A DNA stretch of 64,000 bases from Opitutia bacterium (GCA_003558065.1 PWMU01000007.1:8894-72893), one strand, 5' to 3'; positions 39,954-62,226 are shown, counted from the stretch's first letter. A program made the numbers and translations. Notes: generated by a model not told the origin, from the sequence alone.

Positions 39954-41651
39954 TCACATCTTTCCGTGCCGGATAATCGAGACCAGCAGGCCGAAGCCCA
40001 TCACGGTGGCCAGCAGGAAACCGATCAGCCCGATGACGGGAATGTCGTTCCAGGTCGGGGGAATCCCCGCGTGAACCATGAGCGACGAGCCGACGACCAG
40101 CGCCGCGAGGACAATGGCAAAGGCGATACGGTTGCTGACGCGTTCGAGCCCGAGAATGAGCGGCCCCAGCCCGTGATGCTCGAAGGCCACCCGCGCCCGT
40201 CCCTCCTCGATCGAACGCACGAATGCCCGCAGGTCTTCAGGCAGTTCCTTCAGGAACTCCAGGGCGCTGAGACCGGATTCGAAGAGATTCCGGGTGAGGC
40301 GTGAGGGGTGGATCCTGTCCATACGGACCCGTCGCACGTACGGAGCCGTCTCCTTGAGGATGTCGAAGTCCGGGTCAAGCTGGCGCACCACGCTTTCGAA
40401 CGTGGAGACCGCCTTGATCAACAGAAAAATCTCCATGGGGATCCGTAGCCCGTGGCGGGTCGTCTTGTTGAGCAGCTCCTGCAGCAGTCGTCCGAAACTC
40501 ATCTGGCGGATCGGCTTGTAAAAGTGCAGGGTCATGAACTCCGCGACATCGGCTTCGAGAGCCCCGCGTTCCGGCGTCCGCTGAGAAGTGGTCAGTTTCA
40601 ACAGGGCGTCCGTGGCGGCCGATTCGTCGTGCCGGGAGATGTGGAACAGGAGATCGGCGAAATGCTGGCGCAATCTCAGATTCATCGTGCCCATCATCCC
40701 AAAATCGATAAACGAAATCTCCTGTTTCTCCAGGACGAACAGATTCCCCGCATGCGGATCCGCATGGAAGAACCCGTGCACGAAGATCTGCTTCATCATC
40801 AATTCCGCGGTCTGGCGGGCGATCTGTTTGAGGTCGTAGCCCTTGTCTTTCAAAAGGTCGAGATTCGTGGCCTTGATGCCGTCCAGGAACTCGAGGGTTA
40901 ACACCTTCTCGCTCGAAACGTCGCTGTAAACCCTGGGGACGTGGAGGGTTCGCTCCTTTTGAAATTGGTGAGAGAACCGCTGGATGTGGGAAGCTTCGAT
41001 CGTGAAATCCAGCTCCTTGCGCAGCATGTGCGACATCTGACGGATGATTTTCGAGGGCTGGTGGATGCTCCAACCGTCGACATGCTTTTCCATCAGGGAA
41101 GCCAGCGTGTACATGATCTCAAGATCGGTATCGATCCGCTGGCGGAGTCCGGGCCGCTGCACCTTGACCACCACCTGCTCGCCCGTGGCGAGCCGCGCTC
41201 GGTGAATCTGGGCGATCGACGCCGCCGCGAGAGGTTCCTTGTCAAAATCCGAAAAGAGCGTATCCATTTCGGCATGCAGCTCCGTCTCGATTTTCTCTTT
41301 GATCTCCGGATACGCCACTGATGGCACATCGTCCTCCAGCTTGCGCAGTTCCTGAATGTATTCGTCGGGCAGCAGGTCGGCGCGCGTCGAGAGGATCTGG
41401 CCCATCTTGACGAACGTCGGTCCGAGATCCTGCAGGGCCAGCCGGAGACGGACCGGGCGGGAACGCTCAACCGCGACCTTTTTTCGTTTCTTTCGCCGGC
41501 TGATCCGGAAAGCGGAGTTCAGGTAACGGTTGGCGTGGACCAGTTGCAGGAACTCATCGAACCCGTAGCGGAGGAAGACTGCGATGACTTCCCGGTAGCG
41601 CTGGACGTGATGATAGGTGCGGCTGATGACTCCGGGCGGATAAAACGACAT
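39954..41651 (-). CDS. UbiB/AarF (ABC1) family atypical kinase
   Basis: LGPTFVKMGQILSTRADL, AAASIAQIH, VVKVQRP, FHADPHAGN, DFGM, two C-terminal TMs; start uncertain. Confidence 0.93.
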   Translation of the reverse strand: MSFYPPGVISRTYHHVQRYREVIAVFLRYGFDEFLQLVHANRYLNSAFRISRRKKRKKVAVERSRPVRLRLALQDLGPTFVKMGQILSTRADLLPDEYIQELRKLEDDVPSVAYPEIKEKIETELHAEMDTLFSDFDKEPLAAASIAQIHRARLATGEQVVVKVQRPGLRQRIDTDLEIMYTLASLMEKHVDGWSIHQPSKIIRQMSHMLRKELDFTIEASHIQRFSHQFQKERTLHVPRVYSDVSSEKVLTLEFLDGIKATNLDLLKDKGYDLKQIARQTAELMMKQIFVHGFFHADPHAGNLFVLEKQEISFIDFGMMGTMNLRLRQHFADLLFHISRHDESAATDALLKLTTSQRTPERGALEADVAEFMTLHFYKPIRQMSFGRLLQELLNKTTRHGLRIPMEIFLLIKAVSTFESVVRQLDPDFDILKETAPYVRRVRMDRIHPSRLTRNLFESGLSALEFLKELPEDLRAFVRSIEEGRARVAFEHHGLGPLILGLERVSNRIAFAIVLAALVVGSSLMVHAGIPPTWNDIPVIGLIGFLLATVMGFGLLVSIIRHGKM

Positions 41652-41779
41652 GGCGGTGAAAGGAGAAAACCGCTTCACCATAGGGGCCTTGTGAATGGCG
41701 GGCAAACGTGTTTTACTTTTATTTTGCCCTTGAACCCCGGCGACGTGATGGATTTGATTGGGTTTTTTAAGGGATTTAT

Positions 41780-47036: not shown

Positions 47037-47357
47037 TTACTCGCCTTTGACCTTTTTTGTCAGGTTCGCGAGTTTGACTTCGAGAGATTTCACCCGGCTC
47101 TCGAGTTTGTGGAAATCTTCTTCGCTGACCGGCTTTTCCTTCTGCCACCAATCGCGGAGGGTCTGGTTGATCTCCTGGGTTGTCGATTCGAATTCCTTGC
47201 GGCTTTCCTCGACAATCTTCTCGGCCATTTTCTCGGCCTCCTGCCTTGAGATTTTCCCTTGCTCCACCATTTCATGAAGCATGTTCTGGACGTGCTCCTT
47301 GGTGATGACTGTGGCGCCGATTCCGGCGTAAACGGCTTTTTTCAATATATCCAACAT
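47037..47357 (-). CDS. Phasin-like (PHA granule-associated family) protein
   Basis: LKKAVYAGIGATVITKE...EMVEQGKISRQEA....LESRV..LE. Confidence 0.8.
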   Translation of the reverse strand: MLDILKKAVYAGIGATVITKEHVQNMLHEMVEQGKISRQEAEKMAEKIVEESRKEFESTTQEINQTLRDWWQKEKPVSEEDFHKLESRVKSLEVKLANLTKKVKGE

Positions 47358-48694: not shown

Positions 48695-49924
48695 CTAAAA
48701 TGAAATTCCGACCGACCCGGTAAAGGCGTTTACGATCGCTTGATAATCCCCGTCCGCGGGACCTTCGTCCCCTCCGTCGCTGCCGCGCACCCGGCGTGTC
48801 GAGGAATAGCCGAATTGGTAGCCGAGATTCCAGCTCACATCACCGTTGCTCCAACCCACCCCGGCCATGCCAAGGTGCCGGTCGTCTTCGGGAACCGCAG
48901 GGGTGTAGTGATCGTCGGGGACCGTATTCTCACTGAACATATAGCCCACGCTGATGTGAAAATCGTTTTCAAAATACCGGGTGACGCCGGCTTTGTAAAC
49001 AATGCTTTCCTCCCATTGGAACACCAGTTCCTCGTCGCCGCTCTGGTCCCTACGCATCGTGACCGTGTCGAGGACGCTCCAATCCGTCCACTCGAGGTTC
49101 GCTTCGAGGTTCCAGTGTTCCCTGGGGCGGAAGGAGTATCCGATTACTGCGGATTTGGGGAACGGCAGATTGAGTGCGGCACGTTCTTCAGCATCGATCC
49201 CGGCGGCGGGAACGCGCGTGGTGGCGATGCCCTGAAGGGACGATCGCGTCGAACTGCGATAGGCGAGGCCGAAGGCGTGCCGCTCGGCCGGCGCCCAGCG
49301 CACTCCCAGAGTGTAACCGAAAAACTGATCCCTTCCGTCGAAGCGGAATTCGTCGCCGTTTGCGAGGGGATGGCCGGACTCGAAGATACCTTGCCGCAGA
49401 TCGAGCTGGGCGTCGTTGATAGTGAGGCCGCCGCCAATCGAAAGGGTCGGATTGATTTCCCAGGCGAGCACCGGCGTAATCTGCCGGTATTCCAGCCTGG
49501 ACCGGGTCGCGACGGTGCGGAAATCGGTATCATCGGGCCAGTCGTTCACCAACCCGAAGGGGGCATAGGCGCCGATCCCGAAGGTGAGCGGTGTGGTCTC
49601 GATCGGGACCGTAATGTAGGCGTTGGGCACAGCCTTGAAGCCGGCTTCGTTGGTGAAGCTTTCCCCGGTTTGGCTGCTGCGGTAATCGGCGTCGAAATCG
49701 ATCGCGTACACACCCGCCTGCATCGAGACGGCGGAGACCTGGGTGATGCCGGCCGGGTTGTAATAGACGGCGGCGGGCGTATCCGCTGTGGCCGCGAACG
49801 CATTGCCCCGCGCGGAGGCATGAGCGTCCATGTCGACCAATCGGAAGCCGAGCCCCGAGCCGGTCGTGGCGGAGGTTAAGAGAAGCAGCGCGGCCGCGGA
49901 GAATTGAATCGGCGTTTTTGTCAT
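48695..49924 (-). CDS. FadL/OmpP1/TodX family outer-membrane channel
   Basis: Signal peptide then GFRL...ASARGNAFAATADTPAAVYYNPAGIT hatch motif; APFGL; WTDWS; C-terminal Phe; ATG overlaps upstream TGA. Confidence 0.9.
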   Translation of the reverse strand: MTKTPIQFSAAALLLLTSATTGSGLGFRLVDMDAHASARGNAFAATADTPAAVYYNPAGITQVSAVSMQAGVYAIDFDADYRSSQTGESFTNEAGFKAVPNAYITVPIETTPLTFGIGAYAPFGLVNDWPDDTDFRTVATRSRLEYRQITPVLAWEINPTLSIGGGLTINDAQLDLRQGIFESGHPLANGDEFRFDGRDQFFGYTLGVRWAPAERHAFGLAYRSSTRSSLQGIATTRVPAAGIDAEERAALNLPFPKSAVIGYSFRPREHWNLEANLEWTDWSVLDTVTMRRDQSGDEELVFQWEESIVYKAGVTRYFENDFHISVGYMFSENTVPDDHYTPAVPEDDRHLGMAGVGWSNGDVSWNLGYQFGYSSTRRVRGSDGGDEGPADGDYQAIVNAFTGSVGISF

Positions 49925-51978: not shown

Positions 51979-52007
51979 TTAATAAATGGTTTCTATCCAT
52001 AGTGCAA
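51979..52007 (-). promoter_or_regulatory. Putative sigma70 promoter for the kinase-FadL-kinase operon
   Basis: Minus strand TTGCAC-N17-TATTAA in an AT-rich 76-bp gap. Confidence 0.45.
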
Positions 52008-52027: not shown

Positions 52028-53272
52028 TCACTTTGTGTTGACCCTGCGAAGAATCAGGCAGGCGTTGCTGCCGTCCAAGCCGGCGTTCAGGTTGACCGCG
52101 ACCTCGACCGGATAGCGGCGTTCCCTCAGCGGGACAAAATCGAGATTACATTCCAGGTCGGGCGTGTGGAGGTTGATCGTCGGGGGGATCGCCCGGTTCT
52201 TGATCGCCAAAGCACAGATCACCGTCTCGACCGGCCCGGCCGCCCCCGCCCAGTGACCGGTGACCGGCTTGGTTGAGCTGATCTGCAGGCGCTCGGCGTG
52301 GGAGCCGAATGCCTTCTTGATAGCGAGCGTCTCGGCGAGATCATTCTTCGCGGTCGCGGTCCCGTTTGCATTGAGGTAATCAACCTTTCCGGGATGGACC
52401 TTCGCGCGATGCAGCGCCTTTTCAAGCGAACCGAACTGCGGCAGGTCCTCCGGGGTGCCGTTGGCGCCGTCGAAGCTTCGACCGTGCGCCAGAATCTCCG
52501 CGTAAATCGGCGCTCCCCGGTTCAGGGCGAACGACAGTTCTTCGATGACCAGGAAAGCCGCCCCTTCCCCCAGGATGAACCCGTCCCGATTTCCGGCGAA
52601 CGGTTTCATGGCACGGGCGGGTTCCTCGGTTTCGCGACTCAGGTGGTGCGAGGCGCAAAGGATCCCCCACAGTCCGGCGGTTATCGGCGCCCCGCCCGCG
52701 CCGGCCACCGCGACATCGGCGTCGTCGTCCCGAATCAAACTGAATGCCTGTGCGATCGTCTCGGTGCCGGTGGAAGCGCCGGTGAGTAAGGTCTGGGTAT
52801 GGGCGCTGATTCCCAATTCATGGGCGATCGCCGCAGCGGAGCCCCCGGCCTGGGCGTTGAGCAAGGCGCGGAGCGTCCCGTTGTTCCGCCCCTCGCGTCC
52901 CGAAAATTCTTCCACCGACTGATCCTGTTGGCCCCGCCCCGGTGTCGAGCCGGCGACGATTCCGATCCGGTCGGGGGAGACGCGGCTCAGGTCGATGGCC
53001 GCGTCGCGTGTCGCCAGCCTCGCCGCGGCAATTCCGTACTGCGTGGCGGGGGGCGTGCTGTTGGCCAGCGCGGGGGCCAGATAGTCCGCCGGATTAAAGC
53101 CGCGCAGTTGGCAGGCCACTTTGGACGGAAGGCCGGAGGTGTCGATCCGGCTGACGAAGGACGCCGCGCTTTGGCCGGTGCGGAGATGGGCCCAGAAGGT
53201 GTCGAGGTTGAAACCGTTGGGGGCGATAACTCCGATTCCGGTAATGACGACTCTTCTGTTCCAGGATTCCAT
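52028..53272 (-). CDS. FabF-like beta-ketoacyl synthase homologue lacking catalytic Cys and first His
   Basis: RRVVITGIG, MKPF..NRDGFILGEGA, STKPVTGH, IPPTINL; TGA166STG replaces TACTSG and YLNAN303GT replaces YVNAHGT. Confidence 0.9.
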   Translation of the reverse strand: MESWNRRVVITGIGVIAPNGFNLDTFWAHLRTGQSAASFVSRIDTSGLPSKVACQLRGFNPADYLAPALANSTPPATQYGIAAARLATRDAAIDLSRVSPDRIGIVAGSTPGRGQQDQSVEEFSGREGRNNGTLRALLNAQAGGSAAAIAHELGISAHTQTLLTGASTGTETIAQAFSLIRDDDADVAVAGAGGAPITAGLWGILCASHHLSRETEEPARAMKPFAGNRDGFILGEGAAFLVIEELSFALNRGAPIYAEILAHGRSFDGANGTPEDLPQFGSLEKALHRAKVHPGKVDYLNANGTATAKNDLAETLAIKKAFGSHAERLQISSTKPVTGHWAGAAGPVETVICALAIKNRAIPPTINLHTPDLECNLDFVPLRERRYPVEVAVNLNAGLDGSNACLILRRVNTK

Positions 53273-53401: not shown

Positions 53402-54187
53402 CTAATTTTTTTGAAGGGGTCGCAGCCCGAGGCTGCCGAAGGCCAGAACGCTTCGGCTGACCGCCCCTTTCTTCAGGCAGGCGATGTCTGACAAGCTCTC
53501 CTGCCCGTCTTCATCCGGAAGTTGGAACTGGAAGCGGAAAAGGCCTCCCGGGGTTTTCCGATAAAGGCTGCCCGGGTTGAGCCGTGCCGGGACGGTTTCT
53601 TCGAGGGGGGTGTCGGGACGGGTGGGAAACGGAAAGTTGAGGTTGTTCACTTCGGTCCGCGGGTTGCCGGTCGAAGCGAGTGTTCCGGCAAACCGGGCTG
53701 AAATCGCGGCGGCGGCCTCCAGCGACGTGCGGGTTTCGGGATCCAGTGCGTTCGGGTCGGCCTTGAGTCGCTGAAAGGCTTCCGCCGGAAGGTGCTGGGA
53801 AAGGGCGAGAGCGGGGATTCCCAACAGCGCCCCTTCGAGTGCGGCGGCCACGGTTCCGGAATTCAGGATGAGCGGCAGGCCCGCGTTGAGGCCGATGTTG
53901 ATTCCTGAGACAACCAGGTCGGGGCGATTGGGCAGCAGATGGGCAATCCCCAGATTGACGCAGTCGGACGGAGTGCCGTCGACCGCCCACGCGGGACAGG
54001 GAAAGGTCTCGATTCTCCGGACGGCCACATCCCGGTACCGGCTCATGGCTTTCCCGATCCAGCTCTGTTCATCCGCCGGCGCGACTGCGCAGACATCGGC
54101 AACCTCGTTCAGCGCGAGCACCAGCTGCCGGAAAAACGCGGCGTCGACGCCGTCGTCGTTTGTGACCAGAATGGTGGGAGGCGGCAT
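53402..54187 (-). CDS. surE: 5'/3'-nucleotidase SurE
   Basis: ILVTNDDG, GTPSDCV, DLVVSGINIG, SGTVAAALEG. Confidence 0.94.
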   Translation of the reverse strand: MPPPTILVTNDDGVDAAFFRQLVLALNEVADVCAVAPADEQSWIGKAMSRYRDVAVRRIETFPCPAWAVDGTPSDCVNLGIAHLLPNRPDLVVSGINIGLNAGLPLILNSGTVAAALEGALLGIPALALSQHLPAEAFQRLKADPNALDPETRTSLEAAAAISARFAGTLASTGNPRTEVNNLNFPFPTRPDTPLEETVPARLNPGSLYRKTPGGLFRFQFQLPDEDGQESLSDIACLKKGAVSRSVLAFGSLGLRPLQKN

Positions 54188-58148: not shown

Positions 58149-59879
58149 ATGATCATTCCATTGCTTCGGAGGATTGCGGTGTTCGCCCTCGGGGTGTTCC
58201 TCGTGTTTCTTATCTTGTCGTATGTCTTCGCGCATTTGACCGAGACATTCTTTGAGTTTCCGCTGCCGTACTTCCTGGCCGGCGTGGCCGCGGCGGTCGC
58301 CTGCGCGGTCCTGCTCTTGCGCAACGCGTATAAAAACGACGACTACCTCACCGGGTGGGACGAGAGGGCTTTCCTGGTGATTTCGTCCCTGTTCTGTCTG
58401 GCGTTGAGCGCCGCGTCATTGGCCGCCCAGTTGCTGCTGTTGCGGCACGGCTTCTGGGGGTTGGTTCTTTTCGGGTACGTTCCTCTGGCGGCCGCGCTGA
58501 TCTACGTGGCGGCGGCGGCGCTGCGATTCAAGGAGGCCGGGGAATTCCCGAAGGAGTATCCGGAGTATACGAAGAAGCAGCGGGCGAAGCGCGCGAGTCA
58601 GGGCCGTCGCGAATGGGCCGCCGCGGCCGCCGCGCTCGCGGTGGCCGCGGTCTCCCTCTACCAGGTGTTCCCGGAGGAGTTGCCGCTTGTCGAGGCCGAG
58701 GACGAGGATCGGGCGGAACCCCGCGCGGAGCTCCGCCCCCGGGATTTCGAGGGGGACTGGAGCTCTCCGGCTTTTCTGTTGCGGTTGGCCGAAGCCGGAC
58801 ATGCCGAAGCGCAGTACCTTCTCGGACAGGTTTACTACGATGAGGACCACCCGAAGTACTGGAAGACCCCGGAACGGGCGGTCCGCTACCTCGAACAGGC
58901 CGCTGCGCAGGGACACGTCGATGCGGCCGTTGATCTCGGTTACATCTACCGGGACGGCTACGGAGAGATTCAGGATGATGCCCGGGCCTTTGAGTATTTC
59001 ATGAAGGCTGTCGAAGCCGGGAATGCGGTCGCCCAAAGGGAGATCGCGGGCCTGTATCGCTTCGGAAGAGGCGTGGAGGCGGACGAAACCGCTGCCTATC
59101 GCTACCTCGTGAAGGCCGCGGAAAGCGGCGACACGCAGGCCGAAACGGAGTTGGCCGAAGCTTATCAGCGGGGGCGCGGGGTCGACCGGGATCCGGAACA
59201 GGCTTACTTCTGGTTCTCCCGGGCCGCCCGCGGCGGCCATCCCGCCGCCCAGAATGACCTCGCGCTCAGTTACCTTAGGGGTATCGGGGTGGAACGCGAT
59301 CCCGAGGAGGGCGTCCGCTGGCTCGAGCGGGCCGCCGAACAGGACTTTCAGCCGGCCGTATTCAACCTGGGAATGCTCTACTACCGGGGCAGTTACGTTT
59401 CGACCGATTACGACCTCAGTTACCACTACCTTTCCAGGCTCGCCGACGCAGGTCATGTGCTGGGGCATTTCTATCTGGGGTCGCTTTACTACGAGGGGCG
59501 CGGGGTTGCCCGGGACAGGGAGAAGGCGTACAGTCAGTTTCAAGCCGCCGCCGCCAGAGGACACTTGCCGAGTATGATGAACCTCGCGGGCCTCTACCTC
59601 GAGGGGGGCGGTGTCCAGCGCGATCTGGAGAGAGGCCTCGGCTACATGGAGAGGGCCGCCCTTCGCGGCCTGGCGGGCGCGCAGTGGCGCATGGGGAAAA
59701 TCTTCAACGAGGGGACATTCGTCATGCGCGATCCGGTCGTGGCTCAGAAATGGTTTCTACTGGCTGCCGACCAGGGGCATCAGGAAGCCAAAAGCATGAG
59801 CGACGCCCTCGACGAGGAGCTCAGCCGGGAGGACCGGGAAATGGCTCGAACCCTGGCGAATCGTGCGGCGACCCAGTGA
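58149..59879 (+). CDS. Sel1-repeat protein with N-terminal multi-TM region
   Basis: About 5 TM helices then about 10 repeats of AQ..LG..Y..G.GV..D...A..W...AA..G. Confidence 0.9.
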   Translation: MIIPLLRRIAVFALGVFLVFLILSYVFAHLTETFFEFPLPYFLAGVAAAVACAVLLLRNAYKNDDYLTGWDERAFLVISSLFCLALSAASLAAQLLLLRHGFWGLVLFGYVPLAAALIYVAAAALRFKEAGEFPKEYPEYTKKQRAKRASQGRREWAAAAAALAVAAVSLYQVFPEELPLVEAEDEDRAEPRAELRPRDFEGDWSSPAFLLRLAEAGHAEAQYLLGQVYYDEDHPKYWKTPERAVRYLEQAAAQGHVDAAVDLGYIYRDGYGEIQDDARAFEYFMKAVEAGNAVAQREIAGLYRFGRGVEADETAAYRYLVKAAESGDTQAETELAEAYQRGRGVDRDPEQAYFWFSRAARGGHPAAQNDLALSYLRGIGVERDPEEGVRWLERAAEQDFQPAVFNLGMLYYRGSYVSTDYDLSYHYLSRLADAGHVLGHFYLGSLYYEGRGVARDREKAYSQFQAAAARGHLPSMMNLAGLYLEGGGVQRDLERGLGYMERAALRGLAGAQWRMGKIFNEGTFVMRDPVVAQKWFLLAADQGHQEAKSMSDALDEELSREDREMARTLANRAATQ

Positions 59880-59885
59880 CGTGGT

Positions 59886-59920
59886 GGCGAGGGGCGAGGG
59901 GCGAGGGGCGTGGGGCGAGG
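59886..59920 (+). repeat. Heptamer tandem repeat (GGCGAGG x5)
   Basis: ggcgagg ggcgagg ggcgagg ggcgtgg ggcgagg. Confidence 0.85.
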
Positions 59921-59953
59921 GGGCGAAATTGCCTCAGTCGCCAACTTTGAGGT

Positions 59954-59982
59954 TTGACAGGGCGGATGGCCGAACACATTCT
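59954..59982 (+). promoter_or_regulatory. Putative sigma70 promoter
   Basis: TTGACA-N17-CATTCT, 54 bp upstream of ATG 60037. Confidence 0.55.
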
Positions 59983-60036
59983 ATGTGCGTCACTTCAGAT
60001 CCTAATCAACAATCCTACACAAGCGTATCCCCTACT

Positions 60037-62226
60037 ATGAAAATGATCCCCTCCTTTCTGAAACGCCCGGTCCTCCTGGCGTTTGCCGCCGCGTTGGTGT
60101 CGAGTCCCGCCTACGCACTTACCGTCCACGTTGATGAGGACTTCTCGGAGGCGGTGCCTCCGGACCAGCTCCCCGGTGCCTGGGAGATTCCGTCGACTCA
60201 CGCCATCACCGATAACACGAATCCGGAAAACTGGACAATCACCGACGACCCCCCCGCCGATGGCACCAGTATTTGGATACGCGGCGGCAACGTGATTCTG
60301 GGGGATGACGACGCCGGCGAATGGCTGGCCGTCACGGCCTCCGACGAGGAGCCGATTGTTTTCCGGGTCAGTATTTATGATTTCATGGAGGAGCCTGACA
60401 ATGACGACGATGTGGCTACGCAGAGCTATGTTCAATTGGGCGACCTGGATCAGACGATCCTCCTGGCCGTGGGCGTGTTCGCGCAGGACGAGCGTTACGA
60501 GGTGCGCAGTTGGCCGGGCCACAACTGGTTTACGCTCGATGCGGAACGCAGTGAAGGCTGGCACACGTTTACGTTTGTGGTGCGGGAGGATACCTTTGAC
60601 GTGTACGTCAACGAGGATCCGTTCGACGAGGGGGCGGCGCCCGACCCGAACGCCACCAACCGCACCTGGGCCGGAGGTGCCGAGTTCGGCTGGATCGACC
60701 TGGGCGGGAATTTCTCAACCACCGCCGAGGCTTTTATGTACGATAATGTCTACTTGGCCAACGACCCGGCTGCCGCGCGTACCATCGATATCGTCGAGCA
60801 GCCGCAGGGCGGAGAGGTGCCGTTTGGGTTTGATTTTGACTTGAGCGTGGTGGCCGAAGCCGACACGTCCCTGACGTATCAGTGGCGCAAAGACGGGGCG
60901 GATCTGGATGACGCCGATCCCCGCGTTTCGGGCGCCACTTCCGACACCCTCACGATCAGTGAAGCCGAGTTCGAGGATTCCGGAAACTATCGGGTTTTCG
61001 TCTCCGACGAGAGCCAGACCGTACCCAGCGAGGTGGCCGCCATCGACGTCCAGCCGTTTGTTTTCGTCGAGTCTCCCGAAACCCTCCAATTGGAAGAGGG
61101 CGGGACCGCCGTGTTTTCCGTGGAGGTTTCCGGCGAGGAAACCTTCGAGTACCAGTGGTTCCGCGGCGAAGGGGCGCTCGAGGACGGCGGCCGGATCTCC
61201 GGGGCCACCTCGACCAGCCTCACTATCACCGACGCTTCGCCCGCCGACGCGGGCGATTACTTCGTCGAGGTGACCAATCCGCACGGCACGCGGGACAGCG
61301 AGGTGGCGCGCCTGATTATCGCGCCTGCGCCGACCGGCGTCCGGTTCGCGGATTTCGAGGATATCGAGCTGCCGTCTCCCAATGGAAGCGTCCTGTTCCA
61401 GGCGCCCAGTTTTTCCGGGTCGACCAATTTTCGCGTTACCTCTCCGAACCTTTCCCAGGTAACCGATGATGTCCCCGAAGGCAATTGGGGGGCGCAATCG
61501 CTCCTGGTCAACTTCAGCTTCGTCGAGGATCAGGATAATCCGTGGTTGCGTTTGACCACGTTCAACACGACCAACCTGGCGAATCCGATCATCCGTTTCG
61601 ATCAATATTTTCGGTTTGACGTTTATACCAACCAGGACGTGTACCTGGCCTTCGGAGTTCGAGACAACGGTGCCGAGGGAGAGATCGGCGAGGACGGCGG
61701 CGCCGCCGGACCCATCGAATGGATCGGGGGCACGACCGACAACGAGCGGGAAGGCTTGACCGGCGACGTTCCGCCCCTGGGGCGGCTCGTGAGAGCCGGA
61801 GAGTGGACGTCGCTCTTCTTCAATATTCCGGAAGAGCCGCTCAAGGCCTTCACGGGGAACGCGACGCTCGATAACGTTCAGGGAACGCTGGAACATATCG
61901 CGATTGTTCCCGTGATCGACGAAGAGGGCGATTACTCCACCGATCCCTTCGAGATCTACTTCGACAACTTTGAAGTCACCGAGGTCGGTCCGCCGGACTT
62001 TGTGGGTCCCCCGCGCGTTGCCGCGAACCGTACTGCCGACGGCAACGTTCGCGTGCGGGTGACCGGGGAAGCCAATGCTTCGTTCGCCCTGGAGGTTTCA
62101 ACGGACCTGGTGGATTGGGATCCGCTGACCACCATCGACGCCGACGGGGGCGGCGTTGCCGAGTATATTGAAGAGGACGTGGCCGGTTTCCCGCGCCGTT
62201 TCTACCGGGTCAATCTGGAGGACTGA
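60037..62226 (+). CDS. Secreted surface protein: lectin-like N-domain, two Ig-like domains, beta-sandwich domain, C-terminal sorting-like domain
   Basis: Signal peptide ending AYA; two LTYQWRKDG/YQWFRG...GATS..LTI...D.G.Y.V.V Ig repeats; ends LEVSTDLVDW...RRFYRV. Confidence 0.85.
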   Translation: MKMIPSFLKRPVLLAFAAALVSSPAYALTVHVDEDFSEAVPPDQLPGAWEIPSTHAITDNTNPENWTITDDPPADGTSIWIRGGNVILGDDDAGEWLAVTASDEEPIVFRVSIYDFMEEPDNDDDVATQSYVQLGDLDQTILLAVGVFAQDERYEVRSWPGHNWFTLDAERSEGWHTFTFVVREDTFDVYVNEDPFDEGAAPDPNATNRTWAGGAEFGWIDLGGNFSTTAEAFMYDNVYLANDPAAARTIDIVEQPQGGEVPFGFDFDLSVVAEADTSLTYQWRKDGADLDDADPRVSGATSDTLTISEAEFEDSGNYRVFVSDESQTVPSEVAAIDVQPFVFVESPETLQLEEGGTAVFSVEVSGEETFEYQWFRGEGALEDGGRISGATSTSLTITDASPADAGDYFVEVTNPHGTRDSEVARLIIAPAPTGVRFADFEDIELPSPNGSVLFQAPSFSGSTNFRVTSPNLSQVTDDVPEGNWGAQSLLVNFSFVEDQDNPWLRLTTFNTTNLANPIIRFDQYFRFDVYTNQDVYLAFGVRDNGAEGEIGEDGGAAGPIEWIGGTTDNEREGLTGDVPPLGRLVRAGEWTSLFFNIPEEPLKAFTGNATLDNVQGTLEHIAIVPVIDEEGDYSTDPFEIYFDNFEVTEVGPPDFVGPPRVAANRTADGNVRVRVTGEANASFALEVSTDLVDWDPLTTIDADGGGVAEYIEEDVAGFPRRFYRVNLED

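Follow-up and report, generated by a model that had tools for sequence, protein, structure and literature searches.

The locus considered here raises the question of why a ketosynthase gene of the FabF type should persist at full length after its catalytic residues have been replaced, and of what its product might do beside a pair of signalling kinases. It lies in a 64,000-nucleotide stretch of the genome of an Opitutia bacterium (GCA_003558065.1, PWMU01000007.1:8894-72893), called the window below; genomes, contigs and loci are designated by numbers preceded by G, C and L, respectively, the window's own genome being G000.

A full-length ketosynthase fold without the catalytic triad

The ketosynthase (KS) gene is a stop-free frame of 414 codons, and each of the features that an earlier note on this DNA had read from it, namely Ala166, Asn303, His340 followed by Trp341, the GLDG gate, the DGAN segment and the intact frame, was confirmed at its position (Table 1). 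DGAN, at residues 268-271, occupies the loop 2 position of B. subtilis FabF. The product retains a complete thiolase-type KS fold, as indicated by its Pfam matches, an AlphaFold model (mean pLDDT 85, with only residues 111-129 and 270-276 of low confidence) and the match of that model to the FabF structures 4LS5 and 4LS6 (TM 0.87), while lacking the Cys-His-His triad. It resembles FabF/KAS II (TIGR03150; B. subtilis 4LS5; E. coli FabF) in fold, length, Lys335, His340 and about 37% identity, but differs from it in the absence of Cys and His303, in the gate, in lacking the basic ACP-docking residues and in being encoded with kinases rather than acpP. It also scores below the curated cut-off of TIGR03150 (337.7 against 493.75 bits) and below that of PRK07103 (182 against 445). 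The gate residue Leu399 is private to the window's genome, Phe being found in all 119 homologues (120 sequences in all), which suggests, on the alignment, a continuing erosion of the protein.

Table 1. Features of the ketosynthase gene and its neighbourhood, in window coordinates
Feature	Position	Strand	Basis or remark
FabF-fold ketosynthase pseudoenzyme (KS), 414 aa, Ala166/Asn303/His340	52028..53272	-	Pfam PF00109 and PF02801
Codon 166, GCT (Ala), catalytic Cys position	52775..52777	-	Alignment to B. subtilis FabF 4LS5
Codon 303, AAC (Asn), first catalytic His position	52364..52366	-	AAC also in L031, L035, L036
His340 (CAC), then Trp341 (TGG)	52250..52255	-	His340 kept in 7/7 sub-clade members
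Gate loop GLDG in place of GFGG (Leu399-Asp400)	52070..52081	-	Sequence, alignment
Residues 66-74 (APALANSTP), ACP-docking region 1 without Lys/Arg	53051..53077	-	Alignment; interface residues as given in the accessible part of PMC7138838
RGK, REC-GAF-(PAS)-HisKA-HATPase hybrid kinase, 676 aa	49921..51951	-	REC Asp, His, N/G boxes present
FadL/OmpP1/TodX outer-membrane channel for hydrophobic molecules	48695..49924	-	PF03349, E 1.6e-51
RK, REC-HisKA-HATPase hybrid kinase, 407 aa	47466..48689	-	Pfam
surE, upstream synteny marker	53402..54187	-	Abuts RGK in G002, where KS is deleted
Promoter-like TTGCAC-N17-TATTAA between KS and RGK	51979..52007	-	Predicted, motif alignment

Contigs from four public DNA runs (soda lake, salt lake and alkali sediment; at most four samples from at most two studies, one of them possibly the source itself) span the gene and differ only at 52322 (synonymous) and 53262 (W4S). 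Since they agree at the altered codons, the substitutions are not assembly errors, a doubt that the earlier note had itself raised. No RNA dataset was listed among the public runs carrying the gene. Three other KS genes, each with Cys/His/His, are encoded in the same genome, all on other contigs, and the window KS is 36% identical to the acpP-linked FabF among its own genes; the claim that no active KS lies nearby thus holds for the whole contig, on which no second KS was found. A tblastn search with one ACP-like ORF of this genome, a weak check that missed AcpP on C171, matched the query alone. No beta-branching cassette (HMGS, ECH, ACP) was recovered among the 12 window ORFs scanned or in gene maps drawn by eye. 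Between 53290 and 53400, upstream of KS, lies a loose match to a short motif common to G001, G004 and G011, which is possibly a conserved promoter or operator.

Downstream of KS, as in its relatives, lies RGK, whose stop is overlapped by the start of FadL; both hybrid kinases retain their phospho-sites and kinase boxes. A TTGCA-N17-TATAA-type motif precedes RGK in 6/6 aligned orthologous loci, including two without KS, and because this promoter-like element lies between KS and RGK the kinase genes likely have their own promoter; a consensus scan of the window returned two sites against 1.4 expected, the motif at this position not being among those listed. The notion that KS is kept merely as part of the kinase transcript is disfavoured by the same motif. 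Beyond RK, the window contains a phasin-like gene (47037-47357; weak Pfam match) and, by eye, an ABC1/UbiB-like kinase gene (39954-41705), the phasin-RluA neighbourhood being conserved at 6/6 orthologous loci. A large secreted-looking protein with Ig-like domains (59863-62226) and the protein of L121 at 51-2288 share a short C-terminal domain that by eye resembles a sorting signal.

A kinase-linked ketosynthase clade of Verrucomicrobiota

The best 119 homologues are 44-64% identical to the window KS; those with a taxon name are from Verrucomicrobiota, and the nearest named records are labelled Opitutia or Opitutales. In an IQ-TREE analysis (46 of 85 rows used) the window KS falls in a kinase-linked clade that is split from housekeeping FabF with SH-aLRT support of 100. 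Seven sequences with degenerate motifs, including that of the window, group together on one branch (100), whose stem of 0.31 compares with 0.10 for its sister (99), a set of six intact Cys/His/His copies. By sequence, therefore, the window KS is not a broken housekeeping FabF but a member of a Verrucomicrobiota ketosynthase clade. Housekeeping FabF, which the earlier note took as its reference, was accordingly the wrong yardstick: Ser already replaces Cys in 100 of the 119 homologues (Ser/His/His 100, Cys/His/His 15, Cys/Asn/His 2, Ala/Asn/His 1, Ala/His/His 1). Lys335 and the gate Phe occur in all 119, and the His/His pair, Lys335 and the GFGG gate in 113/113 non-degenerate homologues. Nor are the Cys and His losses clade-wide, a matter that the note had left to an alignment of orthologues; the Ala and Asn changes are limited to part of the seven-member sub-clade. 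A profile of the seven, with 7999 scored candidates, recovered no degenerate member beyond these seven clusters, and none was found by identity among 80 metagenomic loci, of which the two best were examined.

The Ser form has a single origin (SH-aLRT 87). Its large sub-clade (L040-L097, e.g. L074:9965-11239) accounts for 33 of the 62 intact tree members, and the L061 copy is Gly/His/His. Free-standing ketosynthase decarboxylases of the PksF/CurC type likewise carry Ser/His/His. This triad is shared by the 100 homologues above, whereas the window KS is Ala/Asn/His and its parental context is one of signalling. In the accessible portion of PMC11350588, KSQ is covered and Ser-KS is not; our literature search gave no usable passage on Ser-KS or on His303 mutants. 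At L094:9399-11212 and L099:9411-11224, in two non-Verrucomicrobiota records, a methyltransferase-KS(Ser) pair occurs with no kinase downstream, and it is possible that the enzyme pair alone was moved by horizontal transfer.

The parent operon and its replacement modules

The earlier note overlooked the kinase operon from which the gene originates. In intact loci the order is an ICMT-family methyltransferase (not always present), KS, a HisKA_7TM/GAF kinase (7TM kinase), the REC/GAF/PAS kinase RGK and, variably, FadL and the REC kinase RK, with the KS stop abutting the 7TM kinase start. After removal of four duplicate loci, and among loci whose flanks are long enough, the 7TM kinase is directly downstream of KS in 60/65 and absent in 5/65, RGK is at most 3.2 kb away in 41/46, and ICMT is upstream in 33/52 and absent in 19/52. 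A sample of 401 genomes of the class points the same way: clade KS occurs in 13, the 7TM orthologue in 13 and both in 11, while in a twelfth KS/7TM genome the end of a contig truncates KS. This pairing is not seen in the window's genome, in G446, with its borderline score, or in G295, which has the 7TM kinase only.

RGK is more widespread than this. A near-full-length match was found in 52 genomes of the class, 39 of which lack a clade KS at threshold. Thirty of these 39 KS-less loci were fetched (G327 among them being only a partial match), and none of the 30 has a clade KS nearby. Seven instead carry, beside RGK, a fusion of a LuxD-type acyltransferase to a SAM methyltransferase together with a 7TM kinase; six carry a class I methyltransferase, a membrane kinase and a REC kinase; and in 17 no synthase module of either type was found within the fetched DNA. 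Thus, a single position next to a shared kinase core is taken by three different lipid-handling and methylating modules, each with a membrane kinase and often accompanied by a FadL channel. The proposal that RGK always needs a KS-fold partner, which is true in the window's 12-genome family (9/9), failed in the class sample: since 39/52 RGK genomes lack a clade KS and 0/30 loci lie near one, RGK does not generally need a KS.

The LuxD-methyltransferase fusion has intact Ser-Asp-His and SAM motifs. At L121:3546-8881 (G000, contig C67) a HisKA_7TM-GAF kinase and a GAF-REC protein come after it; the same module occurs at L210, L253, L254, L255 and L233-L239, and in seven other genomes of the order it lies beside RGK-FadL in divergent orientation. 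The class I methyltransferase (about 470-570 aa; L213, L215, L216, L218, L219, L240, where a membrane kinase and a REC kinase also lie upstream of RGK) is 35% identical to a Paraburkholderia graminis plasmid gene that itself belongs to a methyltransferase-kinase-regulator operon, and we take this module to resemble phcBSR (PhcB-like). A search for a PhcB-like module, run with no positive control, gave no match in five genomes of the family. Many cassettes (L040, L048, L050, L060, L065, L066, L068 and others), mostly in Chthoniobacterales/Spartobacteria records, are preceded by NrdR, by a protein of 190 aa that matches nothing in Pfam or NCBIfam, and by a HIT protein. Some family genomes encode a second, diverged RGK paralogue (L034:15495-17174, L038:1849-3126, L209:1689-3326), that of L038 having no kinase domain match, and at L088:6657-9239 FadL and RK form a single ORF of 860 aa, either a fusion or a read-through error.

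The parent operon is probably a lipid-signal synthase/receptor pair, an interpretation by analogy with PhcB/PhcS/PhcR and the ICMT-like BpsB. The methyl-ester quorum-sensing system PhcB-PhcS-PhcR of Ralstonia, as described in the accessible part of PMC7694676, similarly joins a lipid-methylating enzyme to a membrane sensor kinase and a hybrid kinase/regulator; the parent operon differs in its ICMT-family methyltransferase, KS and HisKA_7TM receptor, and the analogy is functional only. In BpsA/BpsB and DquA/DquB a condensing-enzyme fold is likewise paired with an ICMT-family methyltransferase, BpsB methylating the lipid product of a PKS, but that enzyme is a type III PKS rather than FabF-type, the seen portion of the source mentions no linked kinases (PMC9827899), and in the window's genome no ICMT orthologue was found. 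Our literature search, with limited coverage of subscription journals, found no paper on the KS-7TM-RGK operon, and searches joining Verrucomicrobia with ketosynthase, PhcB or signal synthase, judged by title and abstract start, returned none on it. The HisKA_7TM literature that was found concerns archaeal (and eukaryotic) two-component signalling; in the available part of PMC5847659 it is mentioned only as a sensor domain.

What was lost in the degenerate sub-clade

Within the 12-genome family a degenerate KS lies directly before RGK in four genomes (G000, G001, G004, G011). Neither a 7TM orthologue nor ICMT was found in any of them, with completeness of 97%, 82%, 97% and 67%, respectively; because G001 and G011 are incomplete, the missing genes there are weak evidence. 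At the window locus itself both the 7TM kinase directly downstream and the ICMT upstream are absent, the closest candidates elsewhere in the genome being, for the kinase, a 23% paralogue on C67 and, for ICMT, a weak profile match on C76 (E 3e-5). All four genomes carry the LuxD-methyltransferase module on another contig, and no active clade KS was found in them. The intact cassette is present in G003, G007 and G010 (in the last, the ICMT position is beyond the contig end), and both KS and RGK are missing from G005, G006 and G009. At the locus in G002 and G008, whose orthology is confirmed by trees of RGK and RK, these two kinases are kept and KS is gone, with 96 and 50 bp remaining upstream of RGK; elsewhere, both genomes encode an intact clade KS accompanied by a 7TM kinase. 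The family therefore divides into four genomes with a degenerate KS, five with an intact one and three with neither, RGK occurring in the same nine that have a KS. Intact and degenerate copies never co-occur, a mutual exclusion that comprises two contrasts only.

The residues lost fall into distinct groups. The basic ACP-docking residues of E. coli FabF include K65/R68/K69 and R127/K128, as given in the accessible part of PMC7138838. Docking region 1 has no basic residue in any of the seven degenerate proteins, whereas the mean for 62 intact members is 3.1 and 8/8 housekeeping FabF proteins have three; region 2 is partly kept by count, with its motif lost. Also gone in 7/7 are the ISPF patch, the GFGG gate and loop 2, identity in loop 2 being 0.27 in the sub-clade against 0.63 in intact members. 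By contrast, Cys is lost in only 3/7 and His303 in 4/7, the latter on two branches and always to codon AAC, so that the triads A/N/H, A/H/H, C/N/H (as in G004) and C/H/H (the proteins P0011 and P0012, which are devoid of the ACP patch) all occur, and Thr305 varies as T/I/A. K335, H340, T307, D311, E314 and E349 are kept in 7/7, and identity within the group is 0.92 over segment 230-244 and 0.86 over segment 335-349. These comparisons suggest an order of loss in which the receptor and methyltransferase went, docking and gate were lost in all seven, and the catalytic residues would have gone last and piecemeal.

Selection on the degenerate ketosynthase

Between the window and G001, NG86 dN/dS for KS is 0.21 (0.14-0.28) at dS 1.2, beside 0.18 for surE, 0.23 for RluA, 0.125 for RGK, 0.14 for FadL and 0.10 for RK in the same pair; for G011 against G004 it is 0.195. 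As both window and G001 are Ala/Asn/His, their divergence most simply post-dates inactivation. Ten estimable pairs of intact KS gave 0.04-0.14 (three intact pairs, and window against L034, were left out for saturated dS). Maximum-likelihood omega is 0.13 for the four degenerate KS; in the same genomes RGK has 0.075 and RK 0.07, and four intact KS sets, of which ks_int1 and ks_int4 are saturated, span 0.01-0.09. The frame is open in 7/7 degenerate members over dS 1.2-2.2, whereas neutral simulation at 0.6 substitutions per site, with indels excluded, left 0/1000 frames open; GC3 of the window KS (0.79) is not eroded relative to its neighbours (0.72-0.76). A fresh pseudogene is thus ruled out by the dN/dS of about 0.2 at dS 1.2 and the simulations, and the decaying gene that the earlier note had weighed against its own reading does not match a ratio so far below 1.

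The constraint is unevenly distributed. In degenerate KS, omega is 0.33-0.34 for the catalytic, ACP-docking and lid elements (delimited according to published work, once the alignment had been seen) and 0.14-0.20 for the rest, the latter being near the intact range of 0.04-0.15; in 7/7 intact pairs the order is reversed, these elements being the more constrained. Some of the poorest conservation in the degenerate proteins is seen in the lid and the Cys-loop strand, from which the dimer interface is built. Judged by these ratios, the window KS is a selected pseudoenzyme, in which the chemistry appears to have been released and the scaffold kept. Of the earlier proposal of a non-catalytic ketosynthase fold under selection, the full-length fold, the purifying selection and the predicted lack of catalysis stand, and its derivation by comparison with housekeeping FabF does not; as to the ligand binding that the note also considered, the lid of the acyl pocket is relaxed.

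Weighing the explanations

We favour, with a probability of about one half, the reading that the window KS is a predicted-inactive ketosynthase, descended from an enzyme whose operon likely encodes a lipid-signal synthase and its receptor, and selected as a likely non-enzymatic accessory of the two adjacent hybrid kinases. The fold, the losses, the descent from the clade, the failure to find 7TM kinase and ICMT in four genomes and the selection on the scaffold are observed. In the proposed mechanism, the intact KS would use acyl- or malonyl-ACP in making or releasing a lipid, which would be methylated by ICMT, passed by FadL and sensed by the 7TM kinase, feeding RGK and RK. Loss of receptor and methyltransferase would have released KS from its chemistry; input may come from the LuxD-methyltransferase/7TM module that these genomes encode at another place; and the folded KS would be retained in the relay as a binding or allosteric component, which is the weakest step. 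Against an essential role stand the deletions in G002 and G008 and the 39/52 RGK genomes without a clade KS, and against an accessory role the fact that degenerate KS is less constrained than intact copies and than RGK and RK.

Some room is left to the view that the gene is a slowly decaying remnant, useless and persisting only through selection against misfolding until it is deleted. The two clean, independent deletions at the locus, the piecemeal loss of Cys and His303, the long stem branch and the mere seven clusters among 7999 candidates all fit it; yet bacterial genes without a use are as a rule disrupted well before they have diverged this far, and here every frame is open, the dN/dS equals that of surE and RluA in the same pair, the scaffold is constrained nearly as in intact copies and GC3 is uneroded, so that we regard it as rather unlikely. 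Conservation of K335, H340, T307 and the acidic residues in all seven, of the two highly identical segments, and the repeated change of His303 to Asn by the same codon would instead suit a residual or new chemistry, in which a small CoA thioester or a free beta-keto acid would be decarboxylated or hydrolysed, independently of ACP, in a pocket made up of His340, Lys335, Thr307 and the RDGF region. FabF mutated at its Cys retains decarboxylation, and in thiolases Asn is used at the His303 position. Such chemistry is unlikely, however: no one new residue set has been fixed among the four triads, Thr305 varies, loop 2 and the gate are lost, and the kept residues are also structural in FabF.

A different origin altogether is envisaged if the parent clade were an acyl-ACP-sensing kinase subunit rather than a synthase, the window copy having been retuned after loss of the membrane kinase. 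The fixation of Ser in a large sub-clade by a single event, the abutting KS and 7TM genes and the dispensability of ICMT at 19/52 loci could be so explained, but the His/His pair, Lys335 and gate are intact in 113/113 and more constrained than the scaffold, the modules that replace KS are plainly enzymes, and the very ACP-docking charges that such a subunit needs are lost in the window copy; we consider it improbable. It is still more improbable that the protein is a subunit akin to a chain-length factor, pairing as a heterodimer with housekeeping FabF or FabB and changing the chain length of fatty acids, as amxFabFmut of anammox bacteria does with amxFabF2 (accessible part of bioRxiv 10.64898/2026.05.19.726425). 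Like amxFabFmut and the chain-length factors of type II PKS, the window KS is a natural, selected FabF fold without the triad; three active KS genes are available in its genome, and its low-confidence residues 111-129 recall the lid reported there as disordered in the amxFabFmut homodimer. Those proteins, in the portion of the preprint available, sit beside an active KS and form heterodimers with it, whereas no active KS is adjacent at the window locus or at L031, L035 and L036; the window KS has Ala rather than the Gln of chain-length factors, shares just 36% identity with its own FabF and has let the interface-building lid and Cys-loop strand diverge, and the gene stays with the kinases rather than fab genes, in genomes in which no active clade KS was found.

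Meaning of the degenerate ketosynthase and its parent operon

Returning to the favoured reading, of a scaffold kept beside the two kinases, a wider and frankly speculative scheme can be drawn, which we put forward as doubtful: Verrucomicrobiota would use lipid-ester quorum sensing through an RGK-FadL-RK core with swappable synthase/receptor plugs (ICMT with a Cys- or Ser-ketosynthase, the LuxD-methyltransferase fusion, or a PhcB-like enzyme), KS would also be a physical regulator of the relay, and the soda-lake lineage would have kept the dead fold as a regulator, discarding it only where an intact copy exists elsewhere.

The sub-clade offers a natural series, from apparently active Cys/His/His through Ser/His/His to a selected pseudoenzyme, in which the order of losses can be read. 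The FabF-fold pseudoenzymes that we found described are heterodimer partners of active ketosynthases, and use in a kinase relay would be something different. The pseudoenzyme itself is narrow in distribution and derived from an apparently undescribed, probable lipid-signalling operon of Verrucomicrobiota; the larger value lies in that parent operon, a candidate lipid-signal system in a phylum abundant in soil and water.
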